The position numbers and the translations under genes are program-made. Positions 4,968 to 16,035 of a DNA stretch of 64,000 nt are shown in pieces (the first letter of the stretch is position 1; every line of letters begins with the position of its first letter). Location of the stretch: positions 276,619 to 340,618 of the forward strand of contig CAWDXE010000003.1 in the NCBI GenBank assembly GCA_963806185.1. Reading direction: 5' to 3'. The DNA comes from an uncultured candidate division Zixibacteria bacterium (GTDB taxonomy: Bacteria > Zixibacteria > MSB-5A5 > GN15 > FEB-12). Under the pieces are notes generated by a model that was not told the DNA's origin, did not search any database, and was given only the letters and a program-made list of their open reading frames with translations.

Positions 4968-6405
4968 TCAGCTTCCGGCCCTGTGGTCGCTGTCACTCCC
5001 GGGTGCTTGCTCCCCTTTTTTTTTAAGGGTGACGGCCGTTTTCGGGGCCGGCAGCACCACTTTCTGGAAATGTGTCTCAACAAAAGAGGTGTCATACTTG
5101 CCGGCAACGAAATCAGGGTCCTGGAGTATCTGCTTGTGGTATTCGATGGTCGTTGGCACGCCCTGGACTACAAATTCGTCGAGCGCATGCCGCATTTTCA
5201 TGATCGCTTCCGGCCGTGTCCGCGCCCGAACTATCAGCTTGGCGATCATCGAATCGTAGTACGGCGGAATCACATACCCGGCGTAGATGGCCTTGTCGAC
5301 CCGCACGCCCGGTCCGCCCGGAATGTGCATCGCCTCGATGCGGCCAGGGCCGGGACGGAAATCATGTTCCGGATCTTCGGCATTGATCCGACATTCGATG
5401 GCATGCCACTTGGGCTGTCAATTCGGCCTGGTTGAATTCGATCTTCTCGCCCAGCGCGACCCGGAACTGCTCGCGGACCAGGTCGACCTCGTACGCTTCT
5501 TCGGTAATCGGGTGCTCGACCTGGATACGCGTGTTCATCTCCATGAAGTAGAAACTGCCGCTCTCGTCGACCAGGCACTCGATCGTGCCGACGCCGAGAT
5601 AACCGATCGACCGGCAGGCCAATAGCGCTGCCTCACCCATCCGCTGACGCAGTTCCGTCGGTCATGAGCGGCGACGGCGTTTCCTCGATCAGCTTCTGGT
5701 GGCGACGCTGGATCGAGCAATCGCGCTCGCCGAAGTGATAGTAGTTGCCGTGCTTGTCGCCGATCACCTGGATTTCGATGTGATGCGGATTGACGATGAC
5801 CTTTTCGAGATACAGATCGGGATTGGAGAAGGCATTGGCTGCTTCGGTCGAGGCGATATGGAAAGCCGCGTTCGAGTTCGGACACATCGCGACAGACGCG
5901 CATCCCCTTGCCGCCGCCGCCGGCGACCGCTTTGAGAATCACGGGATATCCGACTTTCTCGGCGATCTCGGATGCTTCTTCAAAAGTGGCGACCTTGCCG
6001 TCGGATCCGGGTATCACCGGTACGCCCGCTTTGCGCATGGTCTCTTTGGCCGCGATCTTGTCCCCCATGGTGCGAATCTGCGTCGGGCGTCGGGCCGATA
6101 AAGGTAATGCCGCAAGATTCGCAGATTTCGGCAAAGTCGGCGTTTTCGGCCAGGAAACCATACCCGGGGTGAATTGCGCCGGCGTTGCAGACTTCGGCCG
6201 CCGAGATGATTCGCTTGAAATCCAGATATGACTGGGAGGAGGCGGGCGGACCGATGCAGACGTCTTCATCGGCAAATCGGACGTGCAGGGCATCGCGATC
6301 GGCTTCGGAATAGACGGCCACCGTCGCGAGGCCCAGTTCCCGGCAGGCGCGAATGATACGTAGGGCGATTTCGCCGCGATTGGCAATCAATACTTTGTTA
6401 AACAA
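4968..6405 (-). CDS. accC: Acetyl-CoA carboxylase biotin carboxylase subunit (several frameshifts)
   Basis: [57 protein letters not shown] and [10 protein letters not shown] in consecutive frame fragments. Confidence 0.95.
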
Positions 6406-6645: not shown

Positions 6646-7807
6646 TCAGAATTTGCCCAAGCGTGTTCGGCGAATCGCGATCGTTCTCGCTCGCCGGCCC
6701 CCTTTGTCGCCGCCGTTTCGTCCCAACGATCGGCCGCCCCGGTGATCCCGTTCAGCCGCAGATCGAAATCGTCGGGGTTGGTGGCGCTGTTGATCGCCTC
6801 TTCAAACGAGATCATACCCGGCTTGTGCAGCTTCATGATCGCCTGATCAAATGTCTGCATGCCGTACTGCGACTCCGCCCTGGGCCATCAGCTCCGGAAT
6901 ATCGGCTGTCTTGTCCGGCTCGATGATGCAGTCACGGACTGCGGCGGAGTTGATCATGACTTCCAGCGCCGGGACTCGACCGGGCATATCGGAGCGCGTC
7001 AACAGGCGCTGGCAGACGATCGCCTTGAGCGTACCGGCCAGCAGCAGACGAATCTGCTGATGCTGGTGCGGCGGGAAGAACGAAATGATACGGGTGATGG
7101 TCTCCACCACGTTCAGCGTGTGCAGCGTGGTCAGCACCAGGTGACCGGTGTCGGCCGCGGTCAGCGCGATCGACATCGTCTCCAGATCACGGACCTCACC
7201 GATGAGGATAACGTCGGGGTCCTGACGAAACGCGTGACGCAGCGCCGAGGCAAAAGTCTCGGTATCGCCGCCGACTTCGCGCTGGGAGATGATCGATTTC
7301 TTGTCGCGGTAGATATACTCGATCGGGTCTTCGACGGTCAGGATATTGCACGACCGGTTGGCGTTCATTTCTTCGATGATCGCCGCCAGCGTGGTCGATT
7401 TACCCGAACCGGTGGTTCCGGTGATGATGATCAGGCCGCGCTGTTCCGAGGCGAGTTTCTTGATGATCGGCGGCAGATTCAAGTTCTTCGAACGACGGCA
7501 CCAGCGTGTTGACCGCACGGATGGCGATACCGGTGGTACCGCGCTGGCGGAACAGGTTGATACGGAAACGGCCCAGTTTCGCCACCGAAAGGGCGAGGTC
7601 CATTTCGTTCTTGCGGTAGAATCGCTCGAGCTGCTTTTCGTTGAGGATCTGCTGTACGATCTGATCCATCGTGTCGATGGTGATCGGATCGGTAGCGATC
7701 TGCTCGAGCATACCGTTGACCCGCAGGTGCGGACGGACGCCGACGCGAATATGCAAGTCGGAGGCCTTGCGGTTGAGCATCTCAACCAGCATCTGCTTGA
7801 GATTCAT
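6646..7807 (-). CDS. pilT: Type IV pilus retraction ATPase, PilT/PilU family (frameshifts; 3' end approximate)
   Basis: ASDLHI, GRFRINLFRQRG, GTTGSGKSTT, TVEDPIEY, RQDPDVILIGEVRD, TGHLVLTTLH, MQTFDQ. Confidence 0.9.
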
Positions 7808-10170: not shown

Positions 10171-10362
10171 TGGGGTAAAGAAATGGTAAGAGCGGAGAGA
10201 AAGCAAGATGGGGGGATCGAATCGACTCGTACCCCATCCAACGGATGGGTTCGATTTCTCTGGCTTTCACCTTACGATGCTCGACGGACAAATATCCACG
10301 CGATTCTGGTCGTCGGTGATTCCACTACAGAGGACTATACAATGGGAAAACCAGAGAAAGAA

Positions 10363-10386
10363 AAACCCACCTGATAGGTGGGCTAC
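10363..10386 (-). repeat. GTAG-type REP-like palindrome
   Basis: Minus strand reads GTAGCCCACCT-ATC-AGGTGGGTTT: a GTAG tetranucleotide followed by a palindrome. Single copy in this window. Confidence 0.45.
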
Positions 10387-10679
10387 AGGACTGGCTGGAG
10401 ACGTATGCTTTGTCGGGGTATGCCTTTCAAACGGAAGCCGACGGGACGTTTGAGTCGTACGGCGGACCGACGCTGATTTTGTGTGGCCGGCAGGACAATA
10501 TTGTCGGGTACGAGGATCAGTGGAGATTGATGGCGACGTATCCGCGAGCATCGTATGTCGTATTGGATCGGGCTGGGCACAATCTGCCGGTGGAGGCACC
10601 GGAGGCGTTTCAGACACTGGTGACGGGATGGTTGCGGGGGGATTGGATGGGACACGATGGGAATAGGAGCAATCAATGA
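10383..10679 (+). pseudogene. C-terminal remnant of an alpha/beta hydrolase
   Basis: PTLILCGRQD and LDRAGHNL (catalytic Asp/His region) are present; the N-terminal nucleophile region is missing. Confidence 0.7.
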
Positions 10680-12124
10680 GTAGTCAATCGCAACAGGACA
10701 TCGATTTCTTCTTCGATTTCTTTCAAGCCAGGCTTGAATTCGTGAGGTCGCATTGCATAGATCGTATCGAAGGTGTCATTCTTCTTTGTTCATATGTGGA
10801 TTCCTTAGCGGGATACAGATATGGAGGCACTACTGGCCCTGCTCGCTTCAAGAAATTCCTCATCGAGGATACCTTGTATTCGGAGACTTGGCGCAAGGTG
10901 AGCTTGATTCTTCTTCGGCAGTACTTGGAGAAGAAAGAACTCAAGTTATACGCGAAGGCAATAGAAGTGCTAAACCAGCTTGGTGCTAGGACCTCCAATT
11001 TCCGGGATTTGAATTATAACCCTGACATTCCTCTCGAATTGCTCCTGAACGAATTCAGTAAATCACTCTCTCGCAAGGAGATCACCTTTTTCCAGAAGGA
11101 CTTTGAACGATTTCAGTATTCGGCAATACTTTGGAATTGCTATCGAAACTCATCGGTGCACGAAAGCGCAGTAGGGCTGAAGAAGGCGATGAACTTAACA
11201 GATCAAAGCGAACCTTTCTATTCAAATGAACATTCGGGACACGACGGCAGTATCTTAGATCACACTCGGTTCGACATTCCAATGCAGTTCTTGGTCCGTT
11301 CCATCGAAAGTGGTCTGCAGAAACTCAGAGAATTGGCTAATGCGGGGCAATGGCACCCGGAGGTTTCGGTACCGTACGATGACCCCATATACGTGTCGCA
11401 GTCTAGCGCTGATGAAAGGGACAATGCAAAGATTGGCTATCCTCGAATGATTACTAAACCGTTTAGATCACTACTTGCAGATTTGGGAAACTTACTCGAA
11501 CAGGCCAAAACACATCACGGATTATTCGAGACTACGGGAGAAGGAATTCATAGATGGCGTGAAGGAGCAATGTCGAGAAGTGCAATAGTGACCTCGGTAT
11601 TCTTCTTGGAATCCATAGTGAATTCTATTGTAAAGGACTTTTCGATCCGAGAACCGTATCAACTGACCGAGACGCTTTTGAAGCGTTACAACCTATTGCA
11701 TCAACGATTTGATCGCCTTCCACTAATTGATCGCGTCTTCCTAGTACCATATATCTGTTCATCAAATGAAGGGAACTTGGTATCAGGATTCTTCGAGAAG
11801 AGATCAAAGGAGTTCCTGTCACTTCAGGAACTCATTGCAATTCGTGACGGGTTTGCCCACAGCCGACCTGTCAAGCGTCGGATGACCATTACGAAGTCTA
11901 GTGAAGGAGAATATATTGCGGACGATCAGTTCAAAGAGAATTTCTGGCCCCATACACAGATTCCGAAAGATATCTTCATTATAGAATGGAGCAATGCGAT
12001 AACTGCGAAGCAAATTGTCGACTGGGCTGTAGAGCAACTCGACCGATTTCTTGAGGGCCGCATCGCTCAAAGGAACTGGATGAACGATGAGTTGATTGAG
12101 TTTGATCCTAATGTGCGATCGTGA
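10676..12124 (+). CDS. Hypothetical 482-aa protein with two HEPN-like RxxxxH motifs
   Basis: Intact ORF opposite to the local gene direction, lower GC, with motifs RNSSVH (aa 157-162) and RDGFAH (aa 390-395). Confidence 0.7.
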   Translation: MSSQSQQDIDFFFDFFQARLEFVRSHCIDRIEGVILLCSYVDSLAGYRYGGTTGPARFKKFLIEDTLYSETWRKVSLILLRQYLEKKELKLYAKAIEVLNQLGARTSNFRDLNYNPDIPLELLLNEFSKSLSRKEITFFQKDFERFQYSAILWNCYRNSSVHESAVGLKKAMNLTDQSEPFYSNEHSGHDGSILDHTRFDIPMQFLVRSIESGLQKLRELANAGQWHPEVSVPYDDPIYVSQSSADERDNAKIGYPRMITKPFRSLLADLGNLLEQAKTHHGLFETTGEGIHRWREGAMSRSAIVTSVFFLESIVNSIVKDFSIREPYQLTETLLKRYNLLHQRFDRLPLIDRVFLVPYICSSNEGNLVSGFFEKRSKEFLSLQELIAIRDGFAHSRPVKRRMTITKSSEGEYIADDQFKENFWPHTQIPKDIFIIEWSNAITAKQIVDWAVEQLDRFLEGRIAQRNWMNDELIEFDPNVRS

Positions 12125-12201
12125 CTTGAAACGAGTGACGGAAGTTTCTTATTAGAGACCAAAACCGAATCATGATCCGCTCGCGGGAATCATGGATTCT
12201 G

Positions 12202-12253: not shown

Positions 12254-14447
12254 TCACCTATGATGAAACGCCCGCCCCGTCGGCGTCACGTTCAACTCTT
12301 TCACCAGTTCGTCCAGATGATAGACCCGATCAATTACGAACATGATATACCGAGCGTCACAGACAATCGTCCGCGTAACCTCGGGATTAAACAAGTAATC
12401 CGACGCCACTCCCTCCCAGTTGCCGTCAAACGCCACACCGATCAGTTTCCCCTCGCCGTTGATCACTGGGCTACCTGAATTGCCGCCGGTAATATCGTTG
12501 GTGGTCAGGAAATTCACCGGAACGTCGCCGATATTGCCGTCGACCCACGGACCGAAATCTCTGTCGCGAAAAGCCGTGCGCAGCGAATCGGGAACGATAA
12601 ACGGATCCTTGCCGTTTTCCTTCTCCATGACCCCGTGCAAGCCGGTCAGATAGTGATAGGTGACGGCGTCGCGCGGGACATACCCTTTCACCTCACCGTA
12701 GCTGAGACGCATGGAGCCGTTGGCGTCGGGATACATCTTCGCCTGTTTCCAATCGGACATGGCTTGAATCAACATCGGCGCCAGGCGCGTTTCCGCCCCG
12801 GAGAACGCCTTGCCCTCCTCGCGCATTACGTCGGCTTCCGGCTTAAGTGCGCGTGCCAGCGCAATGAACGGATCATCGATCTTGTCCAGTTGCGCCTTGG
12901 TCATGGCAAACATTGCCAAGCGCTGATCGGTCTCGCCCATCTTGGTACGGACAAACCAGTCGTCGACCACCCGATCGATTTCGGCCCGCTTGTCACTCGC
13001 TTCGGCGAACAACTTCTTCACCGGGGCGATTTGCTGGTCGGACGGCAGATCGACCGCGCGCGCCAGGTAGTACCGGAATACTTCTTTGTCCGCCTCCGGC
13101 ACCAGATTGATCTGCGCGTTTTTGAGCCGCTCTTTTGCGGTCAACGTATCCCGCGCCTGGAAACCGCGATCGCGCTGCAGGTCGGGTTTCTCCCGTTCAC
13201 AGGCCCAGCGATAGATCGTACTGGCGAGACGGAGGTAATCGCATCCCCAGGTCATGCGGCCCGAGTAAGAAGTCGTGCTCTTGAGATTTTTGAGACGATG
13301 CATACAGGCTGTCGAGCGACTTGAGGACACGACCGTATTTTGCTTGCATCGTCTTGTCCTTACTCATGAATTCGGTAAGCTGGCGTTCCAGTTCGCGCTT
13401 CTGCGCCAGCGTATTCCCCTTCTTGAACCCCTCCATGACACCGTAGCTCTTCTTCAGGCCGTTGTTGAGTCCCGCGAGATCGGACGCCAGACGGAGCGCG
13501 ATGGCCGAATCTCGTTCACCGGCCCGGTTGAGAATGTTGATCTGATCCTCAGACGCCTGAATCGAATGCGGGTACGAGAATTCCATTCGCTCGGCCAGAT
13601 CGAATGAGCTGATGTGCCGCGAGGTGTTGCCGGGGAATCCGATCGTCATCGCCAGGTCACCTTCCTTGACGCCCGCAGTGGAGAACGGGAGAAACACTTT
13701 CGGGCAGTAAGGCACGTTGTTCGCCGAGTAGTCAGCCGGCTGGCCATCGGGCGCCACATATGCGCGCAGGAAAGAAAAATCGCCCACGTGGCGCGGCCAC
13801 ATCCAATTGTCGATGTCGCCGCCATAGTTGCCGATCGCTTCCGGCGGGACATAAACCATGCGGACATCGCGAATCTCCAGCGTCGTGTACAACATGTACT
13901 GCTTGCCGCCGAACATTGACGCCACACGCGCCTTGATCGCTTTGCCTTCTTCCGTCGCTTTGACCAGCTTCTTGATATTCAGATCGATTGTCTTGAAGCG
14001 ATCAATATCGGAAAGTCTGTCGGTAACACCCTTCTTGATCTCCTTAGTCACGTCCTGCACCGAGAGAGTGACATATACTTTATAGCCGATGGCTTCGACT
14101 TCTTTGTCCCGGGTTGGGGCGTAGAAGCCGTCCCGCAGATAATTGTGCTCGACCGTGCTCTGCTCCTGCACGGCGCCGAAAGCAACGTGATGATTGGTGA
14201 GAATGAGGCCGTCCGACGATACGAATGACCCGGTCGCTCCGCCGACCTGCACGACTGCGTCGGCGAGAGCGCTGCCGCCGGTGTTATAAATCTGCGAGGG
14301 CTCAAGCTTGAGACCCCGCATGCGGAGAAAATCAAGCGGGAGCTGGTCGACGCTGTAGAGGGGCCACATTCCTTCATCGGCCATGCTAGCTGATATCAGA
14401 CTCAGTGAGAGAGCAAGAGTGAGAACAACGCGAATCATGAGGCGCAT
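12254..14447 (-). CDS. S46 family dipeptidyl peptidase (DPP7/DPP11-like); one frameshift near 13260
   Basis: Signal peptide + ADEGMW, LTNHHV, DNWMWPRHVGDF, YPDANGSMRLSYG, DITGGNSGSP, AFDGNWE. Confidence 0.95.
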
Positions 14448-14598
14448 AATGGGGACTCCTTCCTGTTCGGGACAAAATAGGATTATCTTGTCCGGTTTAC
14501 AAGAAAAGAGTGTACCTGAAGGCCTACAATGATGGGTCGTGATAGCGAGCACGCCGCATGATCTGCGGATGCGTTGGGCCGTTGACGTGTTCCTGGGT

Positions 14599-15270: not shown

Positions 15271-16035
15271 TCATCTCACCAATGACAACACCGTCTTGGC
15301 CGATATGAGGGAGTGCGACACCATAGCCATCGACGTGTACGTCTTAATCATGTTCGCTACATAACGCGAGTATTCGGTGGCATAGTCGGTGTCGCGAATT
15401 TGTGATTCGGCCGCCGTCAGGTTCTGTATCTCAATTTCATTGGCCGCACGTTGACTCTCAAGTTCGTTGCGCTGCTTGGCCCCCAGGTCGACCATCGCCA
15501 TGTCCAGTTCATGAGCCGCATCATCGATGAGCGTAAGAGAGGCGGTGGCGCCCTGGCCCGACGACAGGTCTATCCCAGACAATTTGCCGACGTCGGCTAC
15601 GGCGCCCTCGGAACCGTCGAGCGTATGCTTACCGTTGTACTGCGATGATTCGATGGTTCGATTGTAAGTTTCGACGATTGACTTTGCGGCCGTGGCGTAC
15701 GCCTGCTGCGATTCCGACGAATTAGTCGCGGCGTTCGCTGCACCTACCGCCAAGGAGCGAAGTTCGACCAATTGTTCACGCATGCCGAGCATGGCGGAAT
15801 CGACTGTTGCGTACTTGTTGACGACCTGTGTGATGTTGCTGCATTCCTGCCGCAGCGTCGCTATACGATCGCGCATTCTCTCGGAGATGACCAGTCCGGC
15901 CGGATCGTCGGCGGCCGAGTTGATGCGATTTCCGGACGACAGCTTCATGGCAGCCTTCATTGCGCCATCGATCGCCAGGCGCAAGCTATAGAGCGCGGTA
16001 TCGGACTTATCAGCACGAATGGAAAACGAGCCCAT
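15271..16035 (-). CDS. Minimal flagellin-family protein
   Basis: KLSSGNRINSAADDPAGLVISERM N-terminal motif and NLTAAESQIRDTDYATE C-terminal motif; 254 aa; AGGAG RBS. Confidence 0.9.
   Translation of the reverse strand: MGSFSIRADKSDTALYSLRLAIDGAMKAAMKLSSGNRINSAADDPAGLVISERMRDRIATLRQECSNITQVVNKYATVDSAMLGMREQLVELRSLAVGAANAATNSSESQQAYATAAKSIVETYNRTIESSQYNGKHTLDGSEGAVADVGKLSGIDLSSGQGATASLTLIDDAAHELDMAMVDLGAKQRNELESQRAANEIEIQNLTAAESQIRDTDYATEYSRYVANMIKTYTSMAMVSHSLISAKTVLSLVR

Follow-up and report, generated by a model that had tools for sequence, protein, structure and literature searches.

The gene spanning positions 10676 to 12124 (plus strand) of the window, the 64,000-nt stretch of Zixibacteria DNA analysed here, encodes a protein of 482 aa in which two dissimilar domains, each carrying an RxxxxH motif, are fused. 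It is a solitary, low-GC, recently inserted gene. Each of the two halves is usually found without the other in the genomes that host it, and each is likely to be an RNA-cutting HEPN enzyme. With moderate confidence, the protein is proposed to be an abortive-infection toxin, an HEPN ribonuclease with two warheads in which N:N and C:C pairs would build two sites, rather than a guide-less Cas13.

The ORF is intact and runs opposite to its minus-strand neighbours, with pepP and a TPR gene to its left and the gene of an S46 peptidase to its right. A terminator-like hairpin (12171-12194, minus strand), recognised by a consensus scan only, lies between the fusion gene and the convergent S46 peptidase gene. 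The GC content of the ORF is 0.451 vs a genome mean of 0.564 (sd 0.025), and only 0.3% of the genome windows of equal length (n=7273) have values as low. GC dips to 0.42-0.48 across the region, and GC3 is 0.50 in the ORF vs 0.67-0.70 in pepP and ftsZ. The original prediction, made from the sequence alone, had described an intact 482-aa ORF of lower GC placed against the local gene direction; all this was borne out, the GC counts of the two quoted lines (27/60 and 38/60) are exact, and the motifs R157-NSSV-H162 (11144-11161) and R390-DGFA-H395 (11843-11860) are found where they had been placed. The insertion had also been called stand-alone. This holds in that the gene is solitary and foreign; it does not hold for the DNA at its 5' side, as a hydrolase fragment overlaps the start of the gene and a REP-doublet-like repeat is found upstream of the fragment.

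The fragment (about 10387-10679, plus strand) is the 5'-truncated, 3' portion of an alpha/beta-hydrolase gene. Pfam (PF00561, E 1.3e-5) and NCBIfam matches involve the C-terminal part of the profile only, and the fragment runs over the start codon of the fusion gene (ATGA). Other parts of the hydrolase gene were not found elsewhere in the genome by tblastn, and the fragment is likely either co-transferred donor DNA or a remnant. It starts at the edge of a repeat of about 160 bp (10229-10386), which marks the left junction and is organised as a REP doublet (REPIN-like), with GTAC/GTAG plus a hairpin at both ends, in inverted orientation. Three near-full copies of the repeat, 82-85% identical, and several partial ones are found elsewhere in the genome, and this hairpin also borders a Y1 transposase gene (PF01797, G000 C6:108075-108650). 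Repeat and Y1 transposase fit the definition of REPs, REPINs and RAYTs, as given in the available portion of PMC3686654. At the query locus the repeat is found on one side only. The TPR gene is present in 102 relatives, and neither the HEPN gene nor the hydrolase was found within 1.5 kb upstream of it in any of the 29 examined. Four copies of a 23-mer, spaced by about 85 nt, were noticed in the same genome outside the window (G000 C3:11541-11796).

GTAG hairpins were found in 12/28 intergenic gaps beside family genes, vs 12/100 other gaps at the same loci and 31/259 in three contigs of the genome hosting the query (Fisher p 0.0006). The enrichment is to be taken as a lead only, because the detector was built after the pattern had been seen and the loci lack independence. 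The movement of such genes may be aided by REP-like repeats. The literature search gave no description of cargo carried by REPs. Two free N genes (L042:56-1230 and L043:7034-7963) are bracketed by direct repeats, respectively of 171 nt (93% identity) and corresponding to a 58-nt REP doublet (95%), and resemble excisable single-gene cassettes. At two other loci (L051 and L047) inverted repeat copies are present on both sides of the family gene.

Other features of the window are worth recording. From 59300 to the contig end at 64000, GC jumps abruptly from about 0.53 to 0.66-0.83, and a partial Sua5 gene is found there along with tandem repeats rich in cysteine; a misassembly has probably attached DNA of a different, high-GC organism. 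A biotin-carboxylase-like gene is broken into four (4968-6405) and the S46 peptidase gene is split (12254-14552, profile positions 1-371 and 363-697); both are likely broken by indel errors of the assembly. A lone flagellin-like gene (15271-16035; PF00669, PF00700) sits beside ftsZ in a cell-division cluster.

The protein is made of an N domain (aa 1-222, 10676-11341), a variable linker (aa 223-255, 11342-11440) and a C domain (aa 256-482, 11441-12121). RxxxxH occurs by chance in both halves in 11.6% of 20,000 shuffles, and the looser R-x4-6-H in 50%; conservation is consequently the real test of the motifs. In full-length fused proteins (n=15) R157, R390 and H395 are each found in 15/15 and H162 in 14/15, as are the acidic residues E32, D42 and E312 (15/15 each). 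The exception is P0007, in which the N-half histidine is lost and the C motif is kept. Mean identity is 45% in the N domain, 47% in the C domain and 15% in the linker, the length of which varies from 29 to 34 aa and most of which is modelled with a pLDDT of 30-36. Conservation extends to the wider families. In the N family, R157 is present in 51/51 and H162 in 50/51 sequences, and the helix at 31-49 carries D/E42 in 51/51 and E/D32 in 49/51; in the C family E312, located within the helix at 290-322, R390 and H395 are each present in 69/69. The prediction of two RxxxxH domains, each with an acidic helix upstream of the motif, is thus upheld in relatives. The residue following the arginine, usually polar in HEPN RNases, is N (26) or C (16) in most N-family motifs (n=51), and N, D or H in 69/69 C-family motifs. 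In two N-family proteins (P0122 and P0135) the hairpin following RxxxxH is enlarged by an insert of about 90 aa, which has no Pfam match.

On the evidence of predicted structure and of profile matches of its relatives, the C half has the four-helix HEPN fold, distantly RiboL-PSP-HEPN-like, in accordance with the fold originally suggested for it. When the C half of the full-length model was compared with 48,161 chains, the best four matches were all HEPN proteins (Z 8.6-7.7, rmsd 2.8-4.3): 2hsb ranks first (Z 8.6, rmsd 3.2, 120 aligned residues), followed by 1wol, 3o10 and 7ae2 (Z 7.8-7.7), and 120-133 residues are aligned with 2hsb and 7ae2. Such scores are middling for helical proteins, yet agree with independent matches to the RiboL-PSP-HEPN profile PF18735, which is recognised in 20/69 C relatives (E<=0.05, best 1.2e-6). 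The 482-aa query itself does not match PF18735 in a Pfam profile search. The PADLOC model of a DRT-associated HEPN is weakly matched by 17/69 C relatives (best E 0.001).

The N half is modelled with confidence (AF2 pLDDT 94.9), and consists of helix 1, helix 2 with E32 and D42, an insert, helix 3 ending with RxxxxH, a beta-hairpin and helix 4. The order of helices is alike in the predicted models of the two halves, and agrees with the description of HEPN domains in the accessible text of PMC3710099. Structural searches are less telling: the best match (Z 6.6) is a non-HEPN chain, and HEPN chains score weakly (Z 4.6-5.5), among them 4nqf (Z 5.5, 94 aligned residues), 7ae2 (Z 5.2, 111/141 aligned, rmsd 3.4) and the Csm6 protein 8jbc (Z 5.0, 108 aligned), though several of their alignments are among the longest. 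With Foldseek, neither the whole model nor the N model had a match at E<=0.001, and profile searches of Pfam and PADLOC gave no family for the N proteins. In Atlas, a free N relative falls in unnamed clusters (score 0.96, TM 0.77-0.81) in which 30/30 matches are without a Pfam family; as these clusters come from other phyla (Pseudomonadota, Bacillota), the N family looks widespread and unnamed. DinB/YfiT helical bundles hold a three-histidine metal site. Such a bundle was rejected for the N half, since only one histidine is conserved in the N family, despite DinB chains scoring Z 4.7-5.7. Two further Atlas leads, YopA_C (13% of a cluster, score 0.88) and Rv1289 (TM 0.46), are too weak to name the family, and a literature search on Rv1289 gave nothing relevant.

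The query does not match any Pfam, PADLOC or NCBIfam family, in line with the earlier statement that it belongs to no recognised named system, and no solved structure related by sequence was found. A word-indexed search retrieved 13 near-full-length matches, query included, and an exhaustive one 106 matches, 6 of which extend across both halves and the others cover one half only. All named fused members are from Zixibacteria. Altogether 169 distinct proteins were collected, assigned to 17 rows with both domains, 60 with N only and 92 with C only; the 17 correspond to 16 distinct fused sequences, two are fragments, and some single-domain rows are cut fragments. In Zixibacteria the free-standing halves measure about 240 aa each. 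Among 285 genomes of the phylum, the N family was found in 11, the C family in 41 and the fusion in 2 (G000, which hosts the window, and G103), at E<=1e-5, some of the 41 C-positives being weak (E 1e-6 to 1e-13). An N gene is missing in 35/41 C-positive genomes. A complete free N gene is present in 7 genomes, two further matches at contig edges having been set aside: 3, with a completeness of 100% (G061), 96% (G130) and 87%, lack a C gene, and 4 have one elsewhere, two of them belonging to a family in which C is found in 9/14 genomes. In one contig (G199, L047) a free C-like gene (73-771) and a free N gene (6682-7404) are about 6 kb apart, with unrelated genes between them. The genome hosting the query also features a C-only paralogue (G000 C1:979311-979997, L034; GC 0.47).

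The N and C profiles have no detectable similarity (HHalign probability 0.3%), so the protein results from a fusion and not from a recent duplication, and internal duplication of one half is ruled out. Nor is the fusion an assembly artefact, since 15 other distinct fused sequences are known, though the window has frameshifts elsewhere. The fusion arose once, as judged from the C side, and an N half with an unbroken motif afterwards became free again. In a FastTree tree of 107 C domains, 17/17 fused rows form one clade (support 87), in which 0/90 free C rows are nested. For the N domains, the 15 fused rows do not form a monophyletic group (p-AU 1e-58) in a tree of 27 sequences, chosen from 69 in a quick tree and from which the apparently cut fused proteins P0019 and P0021 were omitted. 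Monophyly is rejected because of the free protein P0014, nested among the fused N halves (99/97). Free P0058 is similarly nested (96/90), and P0025 and P0057 have N halves that are placed apart, though only tentatively; P0013 is a fragment, and its cluster includes a full-length member. P0014 has an intact RNASVH motif, and the 77 bases between the end of its gene and a convergent host gene leave no room for a C remnant; the C half has therefore been lost at least once.

At 26 loci of relatives, family genes are inserted singly, with unrelated housekeeping genes around them, and their GC is below that of the locus in 25/27 cases. Pfam searches of 90 neighbouring ORFs of the 26 loci identified neither a recurring partner gene nor an antitoxin or sensor gene, and a nucleotidyltransferase (MNT) gene was found neither among these nor beside the query. 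All-against-all blastn of the 350-nt regions upstream of 29 family genes gave no conserved RNA antitoxin, the common sequences being REP-like repeats and shared icd coding DNA only, and the window has no Rfam match. CRISPR arrays were not found near the gene; a crude genome-wide array finder picked only two short clusters of repeats, both located on other stretches and one of them REP-like. The gene had been predicted to have neither an antitoxin nor a CRISPR array at its side, and these searches agree. The enrichment in defence islands that it had been suggested to look for was not seen. Mobile or defence neighbours are present at about 4/26 loci (an IS1595 with P63C, DUF5131, a PD-(D/E)XK nuclease and a methyltransferase-like gene, the last read from sequence), and relatives were not found in viral contigs, plasmids or phages. 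Three C-only genes are adjacent to the isocitrate dehydrogenase gene icd: two (L059, L060) are just downstream of it and have near-host GC, the third (L003) is just upstream. They are possibly a domesticated subfamily, or mark an insertion hotspot.

HEPN RNases need two motifs per site, usually brought together by trans-homodimers, and cis pairing is reported only for Cas13 in the part of 10.1101/760058 that is available. Each half persists alone, and the N half has re-separated with its motif; each therefore most likely still self-pairs. In the favoured reading N domains would pair with N and C domains with C, forming two separate active sites. The dissimilarity of the two profiles, the poorly conserved linker, the C motif kept in P0007 after loss of the N histidine, the low GC and scattered loci of family genes and the weak DRT-HEPN matches of C relatives also speak for this reading. 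As HEPN biology suggests, RNA would be cleaved in a metal-independent manner at the composite dimer sites, the target probably being tRNA or rRNA, and the activity would be held off until a phage cue is perceived, translation being then arrested. By fusion, a small mobile gene would come to combine two triggers or specificities; the protein might act as a self-restrained abortive-infection effector, like the single-gene system ApeA as portrayed in the available account. Against this explanation, members about 38% identical are still fused, both motifs being kept and the linker length narrow, free N and free C genes are found together in 4/7 N genomes, the fold match of the N half is weak and defence neighbours are rare. 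The absence of free C halves in the fused clade also means that the fused C half could depend on N.

Some of these data fit better the possibility that both domains pack together within a chain to form a single composite HEPN site, as in Cas13 though with no guide RNA. This had been the original suggestion, and is retained as a real, though doubtful, alternative, because the fusion is old, both motifs are kept (14-15/15 fused proteins), the linker is constrained (29-34 aa) and no free C half has been released from the clade issued from the one persisting fusion event. The equal conservation of the two domains (45% and 47%) and their same helix order fit as well. Yet the free halves live mostly apart in many genomes, the N half re-separated intact in P0014, which nests in the fused clade, and P0007 lacks the N histidine; moreover, the two families are dissimilar in sequence, and their homodimer surfaces need not match. 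Whether the motifs come together in a structural model had been proposed as a check. The full-length model (mean pLDDT 72.9, pTM 0.48) has low-confidence motif loops and lacks a confident inter-domain packing, which is weak evidence, as the alignment of 13 sequences is shallow. That two HEPN families have been fused into one asymmetric, Cas13-like site, to give a guide-less single-chain nuclease whose two free-standing ancestors are extant and whose genes spread singly in REP-bounded cassettes, is a doubtful possibility.

It is unlikely that the C half is the sole nuclease, the N half being a sensor, an RNA-binding module or an auto-inhibitor that, for example, keeps C paired and inactive until released by a phage cue. 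Such a role would account for the missing antitoxin, and suits an N half that is not clearly HEPN in fold, matches no Pfam or PADLOC family and has lost its histidine in P0007. It is at odds with the strict maintenance of R (51/51), H (50/51) and D/E42 (51/51) in the N family, and with the existence of N as a lone gene, as would suit a catalytic domain; free C genes have no partner, and therefore no need of N for control. Quite improbable is a role outside defence, the gene being carried in a cassette as a selfish or neutral passenger or encoding an enzyme of house-keeping RNA processing: the scarcity of defence neighbours, the lack of matches in viral contigs, phages and plasmids, and the C-only subfamily found with near-host GC just after icd in two genomes speak for it, but patchy presence (fusion in 2/285 genomes), low GC, unrelated insertion sites and rapid divergence around strict catalytic motifs all fit conflict genes, a pattern established in the accessible text of PMC3710099.

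The C half shares the HEPN fold with RiboL-PSP-HEPN (PF18735), with the HepT/SO_3166-type protein 7ae2 and with AF_0298 (2hsb), and shares with single-domain HEPN toxins the R-polar-xxx-H motif and the acidic residue of helix 2. Unlike these toxins, it has a second, dissimilar RxxxxH domain fused in front and no MNT antitoxin. ApeA, an abortive-infection tRNase, is similarly encoded by a single gene with no antitoxin and has a C-terminal HEPN domain with insertions. Its site is formed by homodimerisation through the HEPN domain, according to the available part of 10.64898/2026.01.26.701840. ApeA features, however, N-terminal and Mid domains and a dinucleotide pocket, whereas the N part of the fusion is a free-standing RxxxxH family, and the query matched no ApeA family profile in Pfam, PADLOC or NCBIfam. 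In the AbiD/F type III toxin-antitoxin system, AbiF is described as a small homodimeric HEPN toxin (10.1101/2025.04.15.648962, in the portion available) with a conserved upstream RNA antitoxin (PMC13064643, likewise in part). The fusion family has no conserved upstream RNA (29 genes), and the upstream DNA is here a hydrolase fragment.

Proteins or loci with two HEPN domains include Csx1 (MJ1666), Swt1, AbiTii homologues and an archaeal dual-HEPN ParA system, as described in the accessible sections of PMC3710099, PMC13064643 and 10.64898/2026.10.19.760177. Within those sections the HEPN dyads carry Rossmann/CARF, PIN, AbiTii or ParA partners, whereas the fusion consists of two domains only; Swt1 and the archaeal HEPN pair are described there as inactive, whereas both motifs of the fusion are intact. 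The literature searched (mostly non-subscription papers, and bioRxiv articles in their main text) contained no description of the fusion or of either family. Cas13 resembles the fusion in having two RxxxxH motifs in one chain. The fusion differs in measuring only 482 aa, in the absence of a CRISPR array nearby and in being made of dissimilar families that also live alone, in-chain pairing being hypothetical for it.

Two unnamed RxxxxH families, one apparently widespread beyond the phylum, are added to those above. N-only, C-only and fused forms make up a natural series of fusion and fission products that can be directly compared, by which it becomes testable whether two different HEPN domains build one cis site or the fusion stacks two toxins. 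If the former is true, the protein would be a compact monomeric RNase effector. The association with REPs, if real, would be a little-described route for moving single defence genes.
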